Assembly: GCA_038889235.1 (NCBI GenBank)
Contig: JAWAHN010000001.1
Span: 631,459 to 695,458, forward strand
DNA: 64,000 nt
Direction of reading: 5' to 3'
Source of the DNA: Candidatus Jordarchaeales archaeon
GTDB taxonomy: Archaea > Asgardarchaeota > Jordiarchaeia > Jordiarchaeales > Freyrarchaeaceae
Shown here piece by piece: positions 2,660 to 43,577 of the stretch. The notes below the pieces were generated by a model. That model was not told the DNA's origin. It saw only the letters and a program-made list of their open reading frames with translations, and did not search any database. The translations under genes were made by a program, and so were the position numbers. Position 1 is the stretch's first letter; each line of letters begins with the position of its first letter.

Positions 2660-3901
2660 TTAAACGTTTTCCCCCACTTTTCGCCTAGGTAAAAAACACC
2701 GTTCAAACTCGCCTAGCAATTCCCTGACACTTTTCCCCGTTGCTTCGGACACCTTCCTTAGATCCTCGAATTCCGGCTTAACTCTAAGCACTCTGCCCTG
2801 TTTATCCCTCGCCACTTTCACATTAATAGGGTACCTCTTCCCTTCGACCTCAAGATCAAAAGTAATCATCTCTTTTTCTAAAATTAGCCTTTTGACTTGA
2901 TGAAGACGCACACCTAAAGTTCCAGTCTCCTTGATTAATTTTTCCGCTATGCTGGTATAGTTTTCGGGTGTACATATGACTTGTAAAATGCATCCTGGTC
3001 TCCCTTTTTTCGCGATGGTAGGTATGATAGTCACGTCTCTTGCTCCAGACTTTAGAAGCAATGTTGAAACGTGGGCGATCACTTCTCCTGAAATGTCGTC
3101 TACGTTTGTCTCGACAACAACCATCTCTTCCTCGTATAGTGAAGAAGTGTTGCCAATTATCACTCTAAAAACGTTCGGGAGGTCGGCTAAATCTCGCTCT
3201 CCAGCCCCATACCCCGCTTTTATAGGCGTAACTGGTGGCATCACGCTAAACGGTTCTGCTTTCAACGCAGCAAGTATTGCTACACCTGTCGGTGTTGCAA
3301 GCTCACAGTTAGATAAGCCAGCCAGCATAGTCATCCCGGCTTCCCGCAATATCTCAACAGTTGCAGGGGCGGGTATTGGCAGTGAACCGTGGGATGATCG
3401 AATTACGCCACATCCGACTGCTACTGGGCTAGTAAACCACTTTGCATCAAGTAAACCGAGCTTTTCGCACATGAGTGCAGCACCCACTATGTCAAATATA
3501 GTGTCTGCTGAGCCAAGCTCATGTAGATGTACTTCTTCGACGTTTTCGCCATGAACCTTCGCCTCCGATTTAGCGAGAAGGAAGGCAATGCTGGTTGCCA
3601 TGTTCAGAGCACGCTTTGAAAGTGAGAGTTCTTGAGCAGTTTTTTCAACAAAATCCAGTAATTCTTTACCAGTAAAGCCTTTCTCTTCCTTAACGAAAAG
3701 GGAGACTTTCGTAGCCGCGATATCTTTTCGCCTAACTTTTTCGACTCTAACTTCAGCTTCCGAACATTTATTTACTACTTTAGGTAAAACACTAGCCAGT
3801 TCTTCGAGTTCACTCCACTCTCCACACAAGTCGACGAGCGCACCCAAGAACATGTCACCGGAAACACCAGCAATGGACGAATCGGCTATAGCTATTGACA
3901 C
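2660..3901 (-). CDS. larC: LarC-family nickel insertion protein (DUF111; pyridinium-3,5-bisthiocarboxylic acid mononucleotide nickel chelatase)
   Basis: 413 aa; N-terminal SGDMFLGALVDLCG motif and overall DUF111 architecture; adjacent to LarB-like gene. Confidence 0.75.
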   Translation of the reverse strand: MSIAIADSSIAGVSGDMFLGALVDLCGEWSELEELASVLPKVVNKCSEAEVRVEKVRRKDIAATKVSLFVKEEKGFTGKELLDFVEKTAQELSLSKRALNMATSIAFLLAKSEAKVHGENVEEVHLHELGSADTIFDIVGAALMCEKLGLLDAKWFTSPVAVGCGVIRSSHGSLPIPAPATVEILREAGMTMLAGLSNCELATPTGVAILAALKAEPFSVMPPVTPIKAGYGAGERDLADLPNVFRVIIGNTSSLYEEEMVVVETNVDDISGEVIAHVSTLLLKSGARDVTIIPTIAKKGRPGCILQVICTPENYTSIAEKLIKETGTLGVRLHQVKRLILEKEMITFDLEVEGKRYPINVKVARDKQGRVLRVKPEFEDLRKVSEATGKSVRELLGEFERCFLPRRKVGENV

Positions 3902-3904
3902 TTT

Positions 3905-4705
3905 TCACCCCCCGGGTATTTTTTCTCTAAACATTGCTGCCCTGTTAGCTATCAAAGCCGCGATTACGCCTGCTCCAACCCCGTTGTCAATGTTAACAAC
4001 GGCGACTCCGGGAGCGCATGTTTGAAGCATCGTGAAAAGGGCGCCAACGCCGCCTCCTCCAAACCCGTACCCCGTGCTTGTTGGAACACCTATTACCGGA
4101 AGGTTCACGAGTCCTGAAACTACGGAGGGGAGCGCGCCCTCCATTCCAGCGACAACAACTATTACATCTACCCCGTTTCTGACCATGTCGGCAAGCGGCT
4201 TAAATACTCTGTGAATTCCTGCGACCCCAACGTCATAGGCGACGTAAACTTCGCACCCCATACATCTTGCAGTTAGCCTGACTTCTTCGGCTACAGGTAT
4301 GTCTGCTGTACCTCCGGTTAGGACACCTACCTTTCCGCCGGTCTTAGTCAGTTTGTAATCCGGCCTCCTGACGTAAATAGTTCCAGTTTCTTCTATCACT
4401 TCTAGCGAAAACATGCTCTCCGGAAACTCTTTTCTTAACAAGGACAACTGTTCCTCGTTGCACTTGGTTACAATAACGTAACCTTTCTCTTCAACAACTC
4501 TTCTAGCGATCTCAACAAGGTACTCTTTTCGCTTACCTTTAGCATAAACAATTTCCGGCGTACTCGAGCGGAGCTCCCTCTTCACGTCTATCTTGGCGAT
4601 ATTACCAACTTCCAGTATTTGAAAGAAACGAATTGCCCTTTCAGCTTCATCTAAGCTAATTTCGCCTTTAACTAGCTTCTCGAGGATCTCCCTTAACTGG
4701 CTTAT
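3905..4705 (-). CDS. larB: LarB-family PurE-like protein (nickel-pincer cofactor biosynthesis carboxylase/hydrolase)
   Basis: PurE-like core GGKVGVLTGGTADIPVAEEV...VIVVVAGMEGALPSVVSG preceded by a LarB-type N-terminal region (SQLREILEKLVKGEISLDEAERAI). ORF track begins at 4855, but that extension would swallow the divergent promoter; a GGAGGGAG motif is followed 6 nt later by in-frame ATA (4705-4703), giving 266 aa. Start is uncertain. Confidence 0.65.
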   Translation of the reverse strand: MSQLREILEKLVKGEISLDEAERAIRFFQILEVGNIAKIDVKRELRSSTPEIVYAKGKRKEYLVEIARRVVEEKGYVIVTKCNEEQLSLLRKEFPESMFSLEVIEETGTIYVRRPDYKLTKTGGKVGVLTGGTADIPVAEEVRLTARCMGCEVYVAYDVGVAGIHRVFKPLADMVRNGVDVIVVVAGMEGALPSVVSGLVNLPVIGVPTSTGYGFGGGGVGALFTMLQTCAPGVAVVNIDNGVGAGVIAALIANRAAMFREKIPGG

Positions 4706-4740
4706 AGCACTCTCCCTCCGGCCGGGCAGGACGTGATGGC

Positions 4741-4750
4741 TATTTAAATA
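4741..4750. promoter_or_regulatory. Palindromic TATA-like element (TATTTAAATA) in the divergent larB/queC intergenic region
   Basis: TTTAAATA matches the archaeal TATA consensus on both strands; lies between the inferred starts of the divergent genes. Confidence 0.35.
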
Positions 4751-4797
4751 TCTCAACGATAATACCTTAAAAGTGTAGTGCGCTGGAGGGGAATAAT

Positions 4798-5544
4798 ATA
4801 CAGGCAAAGATCGGAGTAGTCCTTTTAAGTGGAGGGTTAGATTCGACGGTAACATTGTGGTGGGCTAAGGAAAAAGAAAGATATAGTGAGATACATACTT
4901 TAACGTTCCTTTACGGTTCCAGGGAAGAAAAAGTCGTGAAAAAGGTTTGTGAAAGGCTGTCTTCTCTTTCCGGGGCCAAGAAACAAGTCTTCCTAGAGTT
5001 ACCTTGGCTCAAAGAGTTCTCCGCTAAAGCTGGAACAGCTTTGATAGAAGGAGGTAACCTGCCACCTAAATTAACTATTCAAATGCTTGATGATAAAAGT
5101 GCTGTGAGAGAGACGTCTAGGAGTGTTTGGGTTCCGGCGAGAAACCTTTGCTTTATAGCTATAGCTGCGGCGTATGCAGAGACGTTAGGTGGTGAGATCG
5201 AAATAATTACAGGCTTTAATAAAGAGGAGGCTGAAACATTCCCCGACAACTCTCTTACCTTCACTGAAAGAGCGAACGCGTTACTTGAAACGTCAACTCT
5301 CAAAGCTAGGGTCTCCTTAAAAACTCCTATTATACATCTCAACAAGAAGGAGATATGCGTGTTAGCAAAGTCGCTCAATGTCCCCGTTGAGTACACAAAC
5401 TCCTGCTACAACCCAATCGGCATAACTGAGGACGGGAAACCCATTCATTGCGGCGTTTGTGAGAGCTGCACGAGGAGGAGACGTGCTTTCTTGGAAGCCA
5501 TAGGTTCAGACCCTACTATTTACGCTTACAATCAAACGACTTAA
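4798..5544 (+). CDS. queC: 7-cyano-7-deazaguanine synthase QueC (PP-loop ATPase)
   Basis: C-terminal zinc motif HCGVCESCTRRRRAF typical of QueC; the PP-loop SGGLDS (KIGVVLLSGGLDSTVT) is in frame upstream of the track start (TTG 4855) with no ATG/GTG/TTG before it; GGAGG at 4785-4789 followed by in-frame ATA at 4798. Start is inferred. Confidence 0.7.
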   Translation: MQAKIGVVLLSGGLDSTVTLWWAKEKERYSEIHTLTFLYGSREEKVVKKVCERLSSLSGAKKQVFLELPWLKEFSAKAGTALIEGGNLPPKLTIQMLDDKSAVRETSRSVWVPARNLCFIAIAAAYAETLGGEIEIITGFNKEEAETFPDNSLTFTERANALLETSTLKARVSLKTPIIHLNKKEICVLAKSLNVPVEYTNSCYNPIGITEDGKPIHCGVCESCTRRRRAFLEAIGSDPTIYAYNQTT

Positions 5545-14744: not shown

Positions 14745-14907
14745 AATTCCACCTCACTTGCAGCGAGCGAACACTAGGAAATATGAAGTAGCAGTAATAA
14801 AAAGGCTTAGTTTAATCCTTGCGCCACGATATGTGAAGAGAATACTTATATACTTCTTGGAAATAATCTAAGATTCGCCTCTTTCAGTATAAAGGAGGGG
14901 AACTGAG

Positions 14908-15690
14908 ATTTCAGGGAAGAATCACGACGGAAAAATATTTCTCTTAGACCTTGACGGAACGCTTGGCTTGTCGTTGATACCCGAAGAGGACGCGATACTG
15001 GAAACGCTCGACTTCATAGCCAGTGAAGTCGCCAGACGTTTTAACAAAAAAATTGATAGGGGTACTTTGTACGACTTGTACGTGGAAACGAAAAAGGAGC
15101 AGTATCGCTTATATCCCCTCAACCCGAAGAGACATGACAAAAACCTAAGATGGGAGATGCTACTCAGGAAACTGGGAGAGAAATTGGGTTGCAAGATATC
15201 CGAGGAGCTTTTTGAGGACGTCAAGAAAGTTTACTGGAATCTCTTCGAAAGCAAAGCCAGGCCTTATCCAGATACACATGAAACGCTAGAGAAACTCATG
15301 GAGAAATTCAATGTAGTCATAGTCACCAACAACGATTATGCAGAAGCTAAGAAGAAGATTAAGCTATTCGGATTAGAGGAAGGAAAACACTACGACGTTT
15401 TGGTTACATCGGAGGATTTTAATGTTTGCAAGCCTTCACGAGAGTTTCTCGAAAAACTTATCCCATTCCTCGAGGAGAAGCTAGGGCGGAGGGTAAAGCC
15501 CGAGCACATAGTCGTGGTTGGAGATGACCCTATAAATGACATAGCTTGGGCTAAAAGCGCTGGGCTTAAAGCGATAAGAGTTAAAAGGGACCTTTTGGCG
15601 CCACGTGAACCTAACAATGAGAAAGAGAAAGCAGATTACGATATAGAAAAACTTTTTGAGCTGCTAGAAATTTCTGAAAAAATCCAATAA
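14908..15690 (+). CDS. HAD-superfamily hydrolase
   Basis: HAD motif I FLLDLDGTL lies in frame upstream of the track start (TTG 14968) with no ATG/GTG/TTG before it; C-terminal VVVGDDPINDIAWAKSAGLKAI (motif IV). Start inferred at ATT 14908 (9 nt after GGAGG) or ATA 14935. Confidence 0.65.
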   Translation: MSGKNHDGKIFLLDLDGTLGLSLIPEEDAILETLDFIASEVARRFNKKIDRGTLYDLYVETKKEQYRLYPLNPKRHDKNLRWEMLLRKLGEKLGCKISEELFEDVKKVYWNLFESKARPYPDTHETLEKLMEKFNVVIVTNNDYAEAKKKIKLFGLEEGKHYDVLVTSEDFNVCKPSREFLEKLIPFLEEKLGRRVKPEHIVVVGDDPINDIAWAKSAGLKAIRVKRDLLAPREPNNEKEKADYDIEKLFELLEISEKIQ

Positions 15691-15734
15691 AGGTTGCCTG
15701 GCACCGAGTTATCAGCATTAAGGGAGGTCCACAG

Positions 15735-17030
15735 ATGAGTGTCCTTGAACATGTTTTTTCTAAGATAGGGTTAGAGTTTGACGAGGAAATAGGAACATAT
15801 GCCCACGTGAAGACGAAAATTCCTCTGACGGTTTATTACGACGACGAGAAAGAGGAGCTGGTTTTGTTAGATCAAACTAAGCTTCCATTTGAAGTCACTG
15901 TGTGGAAGACTAGGGATTGGAGGGAGGCTGGAAATCCAGGAATAAAAGGGATGATAGTTAGGGGAAGCCAGGCGATAGGATGCGCCGCCGGGTACGCTAT
16001 GCTGCTTGCAGCTAACAGCTTTAAGAGTTTTGGAAGGAAGGAGTTCATGGAGAAGCTTGGTGAAGCAGCATCTTTCCTACGTGCTACAAGGCCTACTGCT
16101 TCACCTTTAAAGTGGGCTGTGGACTTATGTGAGAGAGCGGCGCGGAACGCGCTCCGGGATAAAGGGGTCAACGAGGCTGTTGATGCAGTGAAGGAAACAG
16201 CAGACTACATACTCGCCTCCGACTTAATTATGAATTGGTACTTGAGACAAGAGGGTAAGCCTTTCATAAAGGATGGCGACGTAATAATGACGCATTGTAA
16301 TGGTGGAAGCCTTTCGTCAACTTTCGGAGGACACGCACTTGGGATCATTGAGGAGGCTTATGCTGAGGGGAGAGAAATCATGGTGGTTGCTAAGGAAACA
16401 CGTCCAAGGAGTCAGGGGTACAAGCTCACAACGTGGGAGCTTAACAGAGCAGGGGTCCCGGTGGTAATAATAACGGATAATATGATATCGTCTGCTATAG
16501 AGAGGTTTGGGGTAACTAAAGTATTGCTTGGAGTAGACAGAGTGGCGAGGGATGGGTCGGTAGCTAATAAGATAGGTTCAGCAGACATAGCGCGTGTTGT
16601 GGCATTATACGAAAACATAGAGTTTTACTATGCAACATCCTACAGCACGATAGACTTAGAAACACTAGAGGGGAAGAACATTCCAATAGAGGAGAGGAGT
16701 ATAGACGAGGTCACTTACCCATATGAACTTGAAGCTAAAGACAAGAAAGAGAGGGGCATACTTTCAAGCAAAAGTCTAGACAGGTGGCCGCCCCGAGAAC
16801 TCCTCGTTCAAGGAAAGCCTGGAAGAGGACAAATAGCAATATATAATCCCGCCTTTGACGTCACTCCTCCCAAACTCATAGACTTGATAATAACCGACAT
16901 AGGTGTTTTTGCGCCTCAACAGATAAGGACGCTAACCGAGGAAAAAATAACATTAATGGTGAAAGAGCGCCTTGAGAAGCAAGGGATAAGCATGCCTAAA
17001 TATATAGCTGCCACCCGCAACGAGACGTGA
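15735..17030 (+). CDS. eIF-2B alpha/beta/delta-family isomerase (ribose-1,5-bisphosphate isomerase / methylthioribose-1-phosphate isomerase-like)
   Basis: 431 aa; LDQTKLP motif and overall similarity to MtnA/e2b2 family. Confidence 0.7.
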   Translation: MSVLEHVFSKIGLEFDEEIGTYAHVKTKIPLTVYYDDEKEELVLLDQTKLPFEVTVWKTRDWREAGNPGIKGMIVRGSQAIGCAAGYAMLLAANSFKSFGRKEFMEKLGEAASFLRATRPTASPLKWAVDLCERAARNALRDKGVNEAVDAVKETADYILASDLIMNWYLRQEGKPFIKDGDVIMTHCNGGSLSSTFGGHALGIIEEAYAEGREIMVVAKETRPRSQGYKLTTWELNRAGVPVVIITDNMISSAIERFGVTKVLLGVDRVARDGSVANKIGSADIARVVALYENIEFYYATSYSTIDLETLEGKNIPIEERSIDEVTYPYELEAKDKKERGILSSKSLDRWPPRELLVQGKPGRGQIAIYNPAFDVTPPKLIDLIITDIGVFAPQQIRTLTEEKITLMVKERLEKQGISMPKYIAATRNET

Positions 17031-35462: not shown

Positions 35463-36113
35463 TTATAAGTCTTGTTGCAGTTCACTTGCTCCTTTTGGTC
35501 TAAGAAGAATATAGGGTCCCATTCTAAGGCGGCTTGCTTCTTCTTCAGACATTTCTTCTACTTTAATTTTTTCTTGGTCTTGCGGTATTATCATTCCGTT
35601 TCCGAGAGGATCCTCTAGGATTATTGTGAATTTCAGGTGTCCGTCTATTGCTTTCTGGATGCTTTGTATTGCTTGCTGGCACTTTTGAGTCTCTTGGGGT
35701 GTTGTTGACCAGTTTTTCAACGTTTGTGCAATGTCCAGAAAACGGTGTAAGACACCTTCCACGTTTGTTATGAATGGCTGTGCTGCTGGTCCCGGTTCTA
35801 GGATTGCACCGAGTTCTGGGATTCTTATGGTGCTTGTAACGGAACGTATTACTTTGGATGAGAGATCTGATGGTTCCCTAACTTGTAGAATGTACCTCAT
35901 GGGTTTTCCAAATCTCATGCTCACCACGTCACTTACTCTTAGATTGCAGTTACTGCATTTAACGGTTACTAGCAACACTTCGTGGAAAAACGGTACATCT
36001 ACATGCACTTGAGTCGTCTTTGCTTTACTACCGCAGGATGGGCATGTAATTTCCTCTTCTACTGCTTCTTCAGATGCGTGATTCGAGGTATTCGATGAGT
36101 TTTTCGGCTTCAT
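35463..36113 (-). CDS. ZPR1-type zinc finger protein
   Basis: 216 aa; CPSCG...CSNCN C4 zinc finger followed by a ZPR1-like beta domain. Confidence 0.65.
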   Translation of the reverse strand: MKPKNSSNTSNHASEEAVEEEITCPSCGSKAKTTQVHVDVPFFHEVLLVTVKCSNCNLRVSDVVSMRFGKPMRYILQVREPSDLSSKVIRSVTSTIRIPELGAILEPGPAAQPFITNVEGVLHRFLDIAQTLKNWSTTPQETQKCQQAIQSIQKAIDGHLKFTIILEDPLGNGMIIPQDQEKIKVEEMSEEEASRLRMGPYILLRPKGASELQQDL

Positions 36114-37773
36114 CCTCTGGGCTCGCCTCCTTGAATGAGTAAACTATAAGCGTAGTTTTACCAGTCGAAGGGTTAAATATAGCCTTAGCCGTTAGAACTA
36201 ACTCTTTGCCTTCCAGGAAGGAGGCTCTCGTTTTTAGTAAAGGTGAGATGTCTCCCTCTTTTCTCATGAACTCGTATGCTTCTTTCGCGGTTACCCCTAA
36301 AAGCTTTTCAGCTTCTTTACCAAAGAAAATAGCCTTCACTACACTTGTTCCATCATCAATCAACACGTGGGCGGCAAGGAGTAGTTTGGGTTCAACTGTT
36401 TTACAGGTACTGCACAGTCTTTCGGAGACTAATCTCTTGCTACAAATTGGGCATATTTCGTAAACGATTCTCTTTCGCATAAGGCGTATTATCGTCCCTC
36501 TAACTTCCACGAATTCACCGTCTTCCAACTGGGAGAGGAACTTACGCGATGGAAGTTTCTTTGGGGGGGCTTGTTCAAGCGGTTCTTCCAATGGTATAAG
36601 CTCGACTTTTGAAAAGCGTCCTATGTGAACTTCCACCTTCCCCTCTAACCCTATTTTAGTATAGCCACCCTTTATCTTCAGCGTATCACCTATCTCCGCG
36701 TTAGCGACGATTTCAGCTTGCTCCCCCCACGCAACCACTCTCACTTTCCCCGTGTCATCTGCTATTACGAGAGAAGACATTACCCCTACAGATCCATCTA
36801 TTCTAGTAAATTCCTTCGTGCTTGGTAACTCGACAACTTTACCCTCTACGTCTACCGCTAACATTCCTGGTTCCAAGTCGTTTATTTTTGCCAGTTTCCC
36901 TTTCTCGGACTCTTTGCCTGGGATGATGGTTACCCGCGCAAGTCTCCCGGCGTGGATTTCCACGTCTCCCTGAAGACCAAGCTTAGTGTATCCTCCTTCT
37001 ATCCTCAATATGTCTCCTTCCTTGACTGTGTCTACGACATCAGCATTCTCATCCCAGAAAACCGCTCTCACACTTCCAGTTTCGTCAGAAAGTATGATGG
37101 ATTTTCTTTTTCCCTCTCCAAGCTCTCTGCTAAACACGGTTGTTGGATAAACTCTTTGAACAACGGCCTCCACGTCTACATCCCACATTTCAGGTAGAAG
37201 GTCGCCTAGCCTAAACAACCTTTTCTCTGTCAATGGGTATTCTCTTTCATCAACGTCGCCCGGTTCAATGTCTAGAAAGCCGCCTTTCCCTAAGTGGACC
37301 TCTAACTCCCCCCTTAGCCCCTCCCGAATATACCCCTTAACAACGCGCACTATCATGCCTTCCTTTATAGCTCCTTTCTCCACGAGACTAACGTGGTCCC
37401 CCCACAACACTACGCGAATGTCGCCCGTTATGTCACTTATGACTATGCTGGCAACCTTACCTTGTACGCCTCTTTTTTCGAAAACTCTTACTGGGTGAAT
37501 GCGTTTCACTCTTCCCGTGATGGTAACATTTCGCATATCGGGTTTCAAGTCCCTCACATATATCTTAACCGGTTTATATTCGTCTATTTCGGAAAGGTCG
37601 ACCCCGAGGTCTCTTGCGACGAGATGTAGAGCACCTTCATCGCTGATAAGGTCTCCCATCGCTCGCTTTTTCCTTTCAATGAGGTTCTGGAGCTCTGTTC
37701 TAGATACACCAGCCTTCTCGACCACGAACCTTACTTTCTCTTCCAAACTCAAAGAACACACCTGACACCGCAT
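36070..37773 (-). CDS. rpa: Replication protein A (RPA) with multiple OB folds and a C4 zinc ribbon
   Basis: 567 aa; repeated OB-fold blocks (GxVxxI..., KIKGGYTKIGLEGKVEVH repeated with variation) and CPICSKR...CSTCK zinc ribbon. Confidence 0.75.
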   Translation of the reverse strand: MRCQVCSLSLEEKVRFVVEKAGVSRTELQNLIERKKRAMGDLISDEGALHLVARDLGVDLSEIDEYKPVKIYVRDLKPDMRNVTITGRVKRIHPVRVFEKRGVQGKVASIVISDITGDIRVVLWGDHVSLVEKGAIKEGMIVRVVKGYIREGLRGELEVHLGKGGFLDIEPGDVDEREYPLTEKRLFRLGDLLPEMWDVDVEAVVQRVYPTTVFSRELGEGKRKSIILSDETGSVRAVFWDENADVVDTVKEGDILRIEGGYTKLGLQGDVEIHAGRLARVTIIPGKESEKGKLAKINDLEPGMLAVDVEGKVVELPSTKEFTRIDGSVGVMSSLVIADDTGKVRVVAWGEQAEIVANAEIGDTLKIKGGYTKIGLEGKVEVHIGRFSKVELIPLEEPLEQAPPKKLPSRKFLSQLEDGEFVEVRGTIIRLMRKRIVYEICPICSKRLVSERLCSTCKTVEPKLLLAAHVLIDDGTSVVKAIFFGKEAEKLLGVTAKEAYEFMRKEGDISPLLKTRASFLEGKELVLTAKAIFNPSTGKTTLIVYSFKEASPEDEAEKLIEYLESRI

Positions 37774-41954: not shown

Positions 41955-43478
41955 TTATTCGGATATTCTACCTAAAAGCATACCCTCAACTCTAACTGGG
42001 ATAAGGGAGTAAGCGAGCTCTAAGGCTTTGGAAAGCCTGTGTTCACTCCCAGAGTAAATCTCCAAGAGCGTATCTCCCTTAGACACCTTATAACCTCTTT
42101 TAAACCTTAGAACAACGCCTGCACCTTTATCCGCCGGAGCTCCAGCAGCCCTAGCTATAAGTTTCACAGCTTCATTATCGACCTCAACGACATACCCGCC
42201 ACTTTCCGCCTTGACCGCCGCAGTATAGTTACCGACAGGGATTTCCTCCGGTTTAATATTAGGATCACCGCCTTGTGCAGCGATTATTTCCCTCATTTTC
42301 GAAAGCGCCCTACCATTCTCAAGAATGCTTTTAGCTACAGAGTAACCTTGTCCTACCCCGGCTTTGCCTCCCATTTCCAGGAGGATCCCTGCTAAAGATG
42401 TCGCTTTTTCGATTAAGCTCATGGGACCACTTCCCATAAGTGCTTCTAGCGCCTCTTTCGCCTCTAGAGAGGGGCCGACAGTATAGCCGACGGGCTGCCC
42501 TCCATAAGTGATCCCGCACTGGATCTTTATGCCTAGCTTTTTACCTATTTTTATGACTCTAGATGCTAGTTCTTCTGCTTCGTTCATGCTTTGTACCTTG
42601 CACCCCTTTCCCACCGGTATATCTAAAACCATGTTGTTCACGCCCACAGCGAGTTTCTTGGCTAGAATGCTTGCTATCATTTGAGGAGTCGGATCGACCA
42701 TTAATGGATGCTCTACTTTGATTATTATGTCGTCGGCTGGCGCTATGTTTAAGCCACCCCCCCACACTATGGCGCCTTTCACGTGTTCAACGATTTCTTT
42801 AAACTCGTCGATGGTGAAGCACACTGGAGCCAGAACTTCCATCGTGTCTGCCGTCCCGCTCGGACTTGTGATAGCCTTACTGCTGGTCTTGGGAATCAGG
42901 AGGCCTGAGGCGGCCACTATGGGTACTACTAGCAAACTTACTTTGTTCCCGGGAACGCCGCCGATAGAGTGTTTGTCGTAAGTTTCTTCGTTAAAACGCA
43001 ATTTTTCCCCGCTCTCCGCCATAGAAATGGTTAGAGCTTCTATTTCTCGGTCACTCATCCCGTTAAAGTATTGCGCCAAAATAAATGCCGCTATTTCGAT
43101 CGGGCTTAGCTCTCCTTTAACTATGCTTTGGACTATAATGGAGATTTCATCACGGGATAATTCTTCCCCCCGCATTTTCTTCCTTACATGTTCAAGCGCA
43201 GGAGTGGAGGGTGCTGTGTCTAAGATAATGGATTCACCGTCAGACAGGTTAATTAGCTTGCTTAAACGTTTAGGGATGCCTATCTCTCCCCTCCCCACCA
43301 TAGAATCGGAGAGGGCTACGTTAACCGTTAACTCACGCCCATCGGCGATAAGCTTAACCCTGTCTCCCACTTCAGCGTGAATTTCACTAGCGTCATGAAC
43401 GTTCATAACTATTGTCGCAGATTCGAAATCGATGTCTACGATGCGCGTCTCGAACTCTTTCAAATATGCAACCTCCAC
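41955..43478 (-). CDS. AMP phosphorylase (thymidine phosphorylase family, archaeal long form)
   Basis: 507 aa; N-terminal extension plus pyrimidine-nucleoside phosphorylase core (HSIGGVPGNKVS, TSSKAITSPSGTADTME). Confidence 0.75.
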   Translation of the reverse strand: MEVAYLKEFETRIVDIDFESATIVMNVHDASEIHAEVGDRVKLIADGRELTVNVALSDSMVGRGEIGIPKRLSKLINLSDGESIILDTAPSTPALEHVRKKMRGEELSRDEISIIVQSIVKGELSPIEIAAFILAQYFNGMSDREIEALTISMAESGEKLRFNEETYDKHSIGGVPGNKVSLLVVPIVAASGLLIPKTSSKAITSPSGTADTMEVLAPVCFTIDEFKEIVEHVKGAIVWGGGLNIAPADDIIIKVEHPLMVDPTPQMIASILAKKLAVGVNNMVLDIPVGKGCKVQSMNEAEELASRVIKIGKKLGIKIQCGITYGGQPVGYTVGPSLEAKEALEALMGSGPMSLIEKATSLAGILLEMGGKAGVGQGYSVAKSILENGRALSKMREIIAAQGGDPNIKPEEIPVGNYTAAVKAESGGYVVEVDNEAVKLIARAAGAPADKGAGVVLRFKRGYKVSKGDTLLEIYSGSEHRLSKALELAYSLIPVRVEGMLLGRISE

Positions 43479-43577
43479 GTATTAGCTAGCTTCTTATGGA
43501 AAACCAATTTTTTGGGGTATTTTGATAAGGTATTTATCAGTGCAAAGAAAAAGTTTTCCATTGGGGGTATATTCAGC

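Follow-up and report, generated by a model that had tools for sequence, protein, structure and literature searches.

Probable near-cognate start codons in three genes of a Jordarchaeales genome

We analyzed a 64-kb stretch of DNA (44% G+C), hereafter called the window, from Candidatus Jordarchaeales archaeon, a member of the Asgard lineage. Three genes of this window, the divergently oriented larB and queC and a gene for a HAD-family hydrolase, are probably translated from the near-cognate codons AUA, AUA and AUU, respectively. The candidate codons lie 6-7 nt behind a Shine-Dalgarno (SD) motif; this spacing falls in the same range as that of the canonical starts (ATG, GTG or TTG) of the window. 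A screen of the 56 open reading frames (ORFs) of the window for combinations of SD and start revealed about 36 genes in which a GGAGG- or GGTGA-type SD is followed by a canonical start, in agreement with an earlier note on this DNA. Three genes had an SD followed by AUA, AUU or AUC (together AUH), a share of about 3/56. The same note had proposed near-cognate initiation for larB and queC. This proposal is well supported by comparative evidence, namely the register of ATG codons and methionines in orthologs, AUH codons at the larB start in eight lineages and the coding-like evolution of the N-terminal stretches; initiation itself is what we infer from these patterns. The relevant features of the larB-queC region are the following.

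3905 to 4705, minus strand: larB (pyridinium-3,5-biscarboxylic acid mononucleotide synthase), putative ATA start, 266 aa, stop 3907-3905
4583 to 4585, minus strand: GTG, nearest canonical codon within the larB frame on the downstream side, residue 41, no SD
4703 to 4705, minus strand: ATA, putative larB initiation codon, ATA or ATT in eight lineages
4712 to 4719, minus strand: GGAGGGAG, SD of larB, separated from ATA by the 6-nt spacer AGTGCT
4754 to 4756, minus strand: TTG, larB start in the NCBI annotation (283 aa), beside or within the TATA region, not conserved
4768 to 4770, plus strand: TAA closing the queC frame upstream, no ATG, GTG or TTG from here to TTG 4855
4785 to 4791, plus strand: GGAGGGG, SD of queC, with the 6-nt spacer AATAAT before ATA; SD kept in relatives, spacer variable
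4798 to 4800, plus strand: ATA, putative queC initiation codon, the sole AUG-like codon at SD distance
4798 to 5544, plus strand: queC (7-cyano-7-deazaguanine synthase), putative ATA start, 248 aa, stop TAA 5542-5544
4855 to 4857, plus strand: TTG, first canonical codon of the queC frame, located past the PP-loop SGGLDS and hence not the start

After the upstream TAA the queC frame reads AAG TGT AGT GCG CTG GAG GGG AAT AAT ATA CAG GCA AAG ATC GGA and continues with GTA GTC CTT TTA AGT GGA GGG. The earlier note was therefore correct in finding no canonical codon from the stop at 4768-4770 up to the PP-loop. It also holds that the conserved N-terminus of LarB precedes all canonical starts, the next being GTG 4585-4583, unless the gene is extended through the TATA box, and that a GGAGG-type motif is followed by an in-frame ATA, after 6 nt in both queC (4798) and larB (4705).

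The predicted QueC protein, which would begin with M-QAKIGVVLLSGGLDSTVTLWWAK, was recognized by Pfam PF06508 with 172.7 bits (cutoff 22; residues 7-233 correspond to profile positions 3-208), while TIGR00364 scored 147.8, slightly below its cutoff of 150.3. It carries the PP-loop SGGLDS and a C-terminal Cys cluster, CGVCESC. Comparison with the solved structures PDB 2PG3 and 3BL5 gave a full-length match, in which residue 4-6 of these chains aligns with residue 5-6 of the ATA-start protein. Orthologs with 64-74% identity start M-Q-[AT]-[KR]-[IV]-G, in register with I-Q-A-K-I-G of the window.

For larB, the ATA codon opens ISQLREILEKLVKGEISLDEAERAI..., and the predicted N-terminus is M-SQLREILEK. 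LarB, with its PurE-like domain, scored above the curated cutoff of its family model (NCBIfam NF033503, 249.5 bits versus 175), and larC adjoins downstream; the model begins only at residue 39. The LarB of L. plantarum (PDB 7MJ0/8SOQ) aligns with E=1e-49 over residues 5-256, residue 5 matching residue 5. LarB proteins of Jordarchaeaceae, Bathyarchaeia and Aenigmatarchaeota have their initial M (for example in MSQLRSILEKF) where the window encodes ISQLREILEKL. The earlier note had called both N-termini catalytically essential. This is correct for the PP-loop of QueC, as judged by the Pfam profile and the solved structures, whereas for the first 38 residues of LarB conservation is what the comparison shows.

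An old putative start codon in larB and a recent one in queC

We compared the larB-queC region with related loci. Contigs of two independent NCBI metagenome-assembled genomes (MAGs) of the same species, also named Candidatus Jordarchaeales archaeon (loci L001 and L002; assemblies GCA_038822405.1 and GCA_038834185.1), are 99.9% identical to the window over the 5-7 kb compared. A sister species (L003) came from a separate sequencing run (Logan SRR32459162) and shows 84.6% nucleotide identity and a synonymous divergence (dS) of ~0.9. A scan of species-representative genomes yielded four further Jordarchaeia loci with divergent larB-queC, and protein look-ups yielded two more. The comparison of larB starts thereby covers eight Jordarchaeales lineages (window, L003-L007, L091 and L092), taken from NCBI, JGI, ENA and Logan assemblies, and the Jordarchaeaceae outgroup L094.

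The queC gene starts with ATG exactly at the position of the ATA codon in L004, L005, L006, L091 and L092, and three codons downstream in L007. The ATA is common to the window species (window, L001, L002) and the sister L003 only. With ATG in this very place in five relatives, the queC ATA is a recent ATG-to-ATA change. The other end of the gene is polymorphic as well: the stop TAA 5542-5544 of the window is TAT in L001 and L002, which adds 13 residues (YLVKQDCSPEKAD) and results in a QueC of 257 aa in these two genomes.

The larB start is ATA in the window, L003, L004, L005, L006, L091 and L092, ATT in L007 and ATG in the outgroup L094. In all eight lineages the AUH codon lies 5-6 nt past GGAGGGA(G). 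Within the intergenic alignment, no block is better conserved than this SD (CTCCCTCC on the plus strand), while the spacer behind it is variable. In the window, the larB frame stays open upstream through the TATA region (TTG 4756, ATG 4855, to 4864). L003, L005, L006 and L007 have an in-frame stop 4-9 codons upstream of the AUH codon and no canonical codon in between. The codons from the stop to the AUH codon are given below.

L003: TAG TTT GTC GAT CGG AGG GAG TGT GTT
L005: TAG CTG ACC ACG GAG GGA GTT GAT
L006: TAG CTG ACC GCG GAG GGA GAA CCG
L007: TGA GGA GGG AGA AAC

The non-AUG start of larB is thus old, unlike that of queC. The earlier note had the two ATA codons flank a shared palindrome. 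A coupled unit around this palindrome was not supported: because the larB codon is ancient and the queC codon recent, the two are not a conserved pair, but rather an old feature and a young one that came together by coincidence.

We also asked how the stretches between the AUH codons and the first canonical codons evolve. Relative to L003, codons 2-40 of larB carry 14 changes, 11 of them at third positions (12 synonymous and 2 non-synonymous codon changes), and codons 2-20 of queC carry 11 changes, 9 at third positions (9 synonymous, 1 non-synonymous). Because synonymous and third-position changes predominate, these stretches evolve as coding sequence. The spacers between SD and start differ between the window and L003, AGTGCT versus TGTGTT for larB and GAATAAT versus AGGCAAA for queC. 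Over the whole genes, the ratio of non-synonymous to synonymous divergence (dN/dS) against L003 is 0.036 for larB and 0.085 for queC. Synonymous sites of both genes are saturated against L004-L006.

The gene behind larB in the window is larC (2660 to 3901, minus strand), with a GTG start at 3901, 3 nt past the larB stop, and with GGGGGTGA within the larB 3' end. In the identical locus L001, larC contains the domain PF01969 Ni_insertion. The layout of larBC (window 3898-3911) suggests translational coupling. In the outgroup L094 (332-2013), larB with its ATG start is not divergent from queC and follows a co-directional PP-loop gene that resembles larE. Because larB occupies this other position in the outgroup, the divergent larB-queC pair is limited to the clade in which larB has an AUH codon.

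A third candidate in a HAD-family hydrolase gene

The third gene lies elsewhere in the window.

14908 to 15690, plus strand: HAD-family hydrolase, putative ATT start 14908-14910, 7 nt past GGAGGGG 14894-14900 (ORF 14893-15688)

An in-frame stop is located immediately upstream, and the DxDGT motif is encoded upstream of the first TTG (14968). The block AAGGAGGG(G) ACT [GA]AG ATT TCA GGG AA[AG] AA[TC] CA[CT] is common to five species. In these species, a 1-nt indel within the G-run of the SD disrupts any upstream frame, and the changes past the ATT fall mostly at third positions. From the ATT start, the predicted N-terminus would be M-SGKNHDGK. The ORF at 15678-17028 (plus strand) is syntenic with an IF-2B-family (ribose-1,5-bisphosphate-isomerase-like) gene that is found beside the HAD gene in relatives.

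Promoter elements and RNA structure between larB and queC

Two A/T-rich palindromes lie between the two divergent genes.

4741 to 4750, no strand: TATTTAAATA (box A), perfect 10-bp palindrome resembling an archaeal TATA box, putative promoter
4766 to 4773, no strand: CTTAAAAG (box B; CTTTAAAG in L004-L006), second small A/T palindrome, possible second TATA element

The core TTTAAAT of box A is kept in L003-L006. Box B is conserved, lies between the box A palindrome and the queC SD and includes the TAA by which the queC frame is closed upstream. The distance from TATA box to transcription start in archaea is usually ~22-26 nt. If this distance is assumed, box A would give leaders of ~25 nt for queC and ~13 nt for larB in the window. 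Judged by distance to the starts, either box may be usable for either gene. The palindromic TATA element that the earlier note had described as shared is indeed a perfect palindrome; however, with box B present, one shared TATA element is not the sole possible layout.

An Rfam scan of positions 4500-5000 on both strands (E<=1) gave no match to a riboswitch or other known RNA. RNA folding of the three initiation regions gave no structure beyond that of shuffled controls (z = +0.4, +0.9 and +2.4), and the idea of a start-codon-proximal hairpin or of SD sequestration was dropped, as the folds were no stronger than these controls.

Alternative explanations

Among the other readings, two deserve most attention, although we consider both unlikely. 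The first holds that a different near-cognate codon is used, namely ATC 4810 or CTG 4783 in queC and ATA 14935 in the HAD gene. The NCBI annotation of the window species indeed lets queC begin at ATC 4810 (product MGVVLLSGG) and the HAD gene at ATA 14935 (product MFLLDLDGT), and HAD relatives have GTG at the latter codon. Yet the distance of ATC 4810 to the SD is 18 nt and CTG 4783 is located upstream of the SD, while the queC ATG of orthologs aligns with ATA 4798 and not with 4810. In the HAD gene it is the ATT that is preceded by the SD, and it is invariant in the five species; the nine codons past it vary mainly at third positions. To get from GTG to ATA at 14935 takes two base substitutions, as is typical when Val and Ile replace each other inside a protein, and the difference looks like such a replacement. 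Whichever of the two non-canonical codons is used, the HAD gene lacks a canonical start.

The second reading, to which we give similarly little credit, is a change in decoding: AUA might stand for Met, or AUA/AUU starts might be made efficient genome-wide by an initiator tRNA that is dedicated or modified or by a relaxed aIF1. The rates annotated for bacteria are far lower than the 3 AUH starts in ~56 genes of one window, which would fit such a change. The internal ATA codons argue otherwise. They align with Ile of homologs in 235 of 366 aligned cells and otherwise mostly with Val, Leu or Phe; just 10 cells have Met. Of the Ile codons, ATA is the most frequent (58%). Because internal ATA aligns with Ile and is the main codon for it, elongation follows the standard genetic code, and no sign of a variant code with AUA as Met was seen. 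Moreover, the same families have AUH starts in unrelated lineages (see below), so that machinery specific to this lineage is not required. A tRNA scan of the 64-kb window found no tRNA gene.

It is very improbable that translation starts at the next downstream canonical codon (TTG 4855 in queC, GTG 4585 in larB, TTG 14968 in the HAD gene) and that the proteins are correspondingly shorter. Standard ORF and gene callers make this choice, and the NCBIfam LarB model begins just two residues before the GTG. However, such a QueC would be left without its SGGxDS PP-loop and such a hydrolase without its DxDGT nucleophile motif, none of these codons has an SD, and the skipped stretches show a strong bias toward third-position and synonymous changes and line up with the N-terminal ends of the solved LarB and QueC chains.

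For larB alone, a start at an upstream canonical codon (TTG 4756 or ATG 4855) would add 17-50 residues; this we regard as hardly credible. The frame of the window is open far enough, to 4864, and the NCBI product, from TTG 4756, has 283 aa. Such an extension would, however, cross the TATA box and enter queC, and it is missing in all homologs. L003 lacks this TTG and has a 1-nt indel and a stop between that position and the SD, and in L005, L006 and L007 a stop precedes the AUH codon by 4-8 codons. In queC and the HAD gene, the in-frame stop immediately upstream closes this route.

About as implausible is the view that the start codons were lost and that the genes are decaying pseudogenes. An ATG-to-ATA change is a classic start-inactivating mutation, and the one in queC is recent. 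Against this, the frames are intact, dN/dS stayed at the low values given above over a dS of ~0.9 since the split from L003, and in larB, which larC follows directly, the AUH codon persisted although synonymous divergence had reached saturation.

Finally, base-calling, assembly or consensus errors for ATG, which the earlier note had offered as its alternative, can be set aside almost entirely: each ATA would need just one third-base G-to-A change and the organism is uncultured and known only through metagenome assemblies, but L001 and L002 each show five differences from the window (one in the queC stop) and still have both ATA codons, as does the sister species from another run despite its diverged spacers, and larB has ATA or ATT in all eight lineages across four assembly sources.

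Several observations weigh against initiation at the AUH codons. The end of box A and the larB ATA are just 24 nt apart in L005 and L006; should box A be the promoter in these lineages, the larB SD may lie outside the transcript, whereas box B would give a larB leader of ~20 nt and leave the SD inside. L091 and L092 have an in-frame GTG or TTG that overlaps the 5' edge (first base) of the larB SD, five codons upstream, and in those two lineages only, a canonical start may be used instead. For the HAD gene there is the second non-canonical candidate, ATA 14935, chosen by NCBI. Since ATA makes up such a share of the Ile codons, the constancy of ATA at larB is only weak evidence for selection on the third base; a statistical argument from this constancy (7/8 lineages) was dropped for this reason, and also since the lineages are not independent. 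In the literature, the aIF1 of Saccharolobus solfataricus rejects an AUU mRNA in vitro, as far as the summary in PMC4705826 goes, and the archaeal starts given in reviews are AUG, GUG and UUG only (PMC7531240).

A possible mechanism of initiation at AUA and AUU

In the reading that we prefer, near-cognate initiation, the long SD (GGAGGGG or GGAGGGAG) 6-7 nt upstream would pair with the 3' end of the 16S rRNA and thereby put the AUH triplet into the P site. The initiator Met-tRNA would then pair with the first two bases and tolerate the mismatch at the third position, and the proteins would begin with Met where their orthologs have AUG. In Pyrococcus abyssi, the SD pre-positions the pre-initiation complex, and the triplets nearby are then sampled by the initiator tRNA (PMC6237735). 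The AUH codons would initiate far less efficiently than AUG and might act as a built-in low setting of translation; in E. coli, the output of AUA, AUU, AUC and CUG is ~0.02-3% of that of AUG (bioRxiv 10.1101/063800). A low setting would fit enzymes that are needed in small amounts, here for synthesis of the nickel-pincer cofactor, for preQ0/archaeosine synthesis and as a phosphatase. For larB we infer that low output is maintained by selection. The recent change in queC could instead be a tolerated, nearly neutral substitution.

Comparison with known non-canonical starts

Initiation at codons outside the set of AUG, GUG and UUG is already known from bacteria and eukaryotes, and NCBI translation table 11 permits AUA, AUU, AUC and CUG as starts (near-cognate comparison from bioRxiv 10.1101/063800 and PMC4705826). 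The closest likeness is with the AUU starts of infC and pcnB in E. coli, where an SD-led AUH codon stands in the place at which relatives have AUG, is conserved among related species and is expected to give a few percent of the output of AUG or less. However, initiation in Jordarchaeales uses aIF1, aIF1A and aIF2 rather than IF3, and E. coli has two confirmed AUH genes genome-wide, compared to three predicted ones in 64 kb here. Autoregulation of the infC type, in which a product that controls start-codon fidelity senses its own level through the weak codon, does not apply, as initiation factors are not among the three products (LarB, QueC and the HAD hydrolase).

Within the archaea, the SD-dependent initiation of P. 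abyssi and S. solfataricus shares the GGAGG-type SD 5-9 nt upstream, the unstructured region and the TATA-box promoter (PMC6237735, PMC7531240), but AUA and AUU are outside the accepted archaeal codon set. The haloarchaeal gene HVO_1510, with a possible CTG start, resembles our case in having a conserved N-terminus ahead of any canonical codon (PMC8305020). In harringtonine ribosome profiling of H. volcanii, ~30% of the putative alternative starts were near-cognate and were set aside as possible false positives (PMC7261190). These haloarchaeal cases concern CTG or unspecified codons in GC-rich, mostly leaderless hosts, whereas in Jordarchaeales AUA and AUU are conserved across species behind a strong SD. 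With the poor-context or non-AUG starts of eukaryotic eIF1 and eIF5 the Jordarchaeales genes would share a weak start retained by selection, and they share fidelity via eIF1/aIF1 homologs (PMC4705826). In contrast to eukaryotic regulatory near-cognate starts, positioning in Jordarchaeales would be by SD pairing and without scanning, and no regulatory circuit is known. The literature that we searched on ATA/AUU starts in archaea and on larB start codons contained no description of conserved SD-led AUA/AUU starts in Asgard or other archaea.

Occurrence of AUH starts in other lineages

We then examined metagenome relatives of larB with at most 55% identity. Among the matches listed, 71 loci had the N-terminus on the contig, and in 5 of these 71 an Ile codon stands exactly at the M of the motif 'MD..[ED][RKQ]L' of their homologs. 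Three of them (L125, L136 and L141) form one clade with 66-74% identity, have ATC after an SD and show, as read by eye, a TGnTATAAT-like extended -10 element upstream. L130 has ATC, and L135 has ATA after AAGGAG. All five larB genes are apparently bacterial and have the AUH codon behind an SD, around position 995-1000 of each locus. In the corresponding queC set, 3 of 76 loci offer no canonical codon from the upstream stop up to the PP-loop. These all belong to Methanobacteriaceae and have ATT after AAGGTGA or AAGGAG (L079 at ~175-190, L080 and L083 at ~2985-3000). As a small control, larC on the same contigs had AUH starts in 0/27 cases. AUH codons at homologous start positions thus recur outside Jordarchaeales, in numbers that are too small to speak of a family-specific enrichment. 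This recurrence in unrelated larB and queC lineages suggests that proteomes derived from metagenomes count too few non-canonical starts.

A broader idea, which we put forward tentatively and hold to be rather doubtful, is that SD-led initiation at AUA, AUU and AUC is regular and selected in Jordarchaeales (~5% of genes) and common more widely, in Archaea and Bacteria, for low-abundance enzymes of the LarB/QueC kind. If this were true, regular AUH initiation would have been overlooked since gene callers truncate or extend such genes. A weak larB codon held over the whole history of the order would point to selection against AUG and to a need for LarB synthesis at a very low or factor-sensitive level, and Asgard archaea would then select start codons less strictly than the in-vitro data on aIF1 suggest. 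Archaeal initiation is described as using AUG, GUG and UUG only, with aIF1 rejecting others. With the present case one may ask whether weak starts set expression levels there.

Public annotation and other genes of the window

Public databases annotate these genes wrongly or inconsistently: larB is extended through its promoter or truncated, queC is truncated past its PP-loop or begins at ATC, and the HAD gene begins at ATA 14935. In close relatives as well, models are truncated (P0002, P0124-P0126 and P0242) or extended, because the gene callers met no canonical codon. Database N-termini of these families are hence unreliable, and ortholog alignments and pathway calls for uncultured archaea are distorted.

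A fourth AUH candidate in the window, GGAGGGG followed by 4 nt and ATA at codon 66 of the ORF 43481-41957, was rejected, as this ORF has an SD plus TTG at codon 6 and encodes an AMP/thymidine-phosphorylase-type protein whose N-terminal domain precedes Glycos_trans_3N. Pfam searches with nine other ORFs of the window that have late or SD-less canonical starts gave no further AUH case. The phosphorylase-type gene (window 41957-43481, minus strand; Glycos_trans_3N, Glycos_transf_3 and PYNP_C) and the IF-2B-family gene are both components of the archaeal AMP salvage pathway. A further gene, at 35465-36143 on the minus strand, encodes a ZPR1-type zinc-finger/jelly-roll protein of a family best known from eukaryotes.

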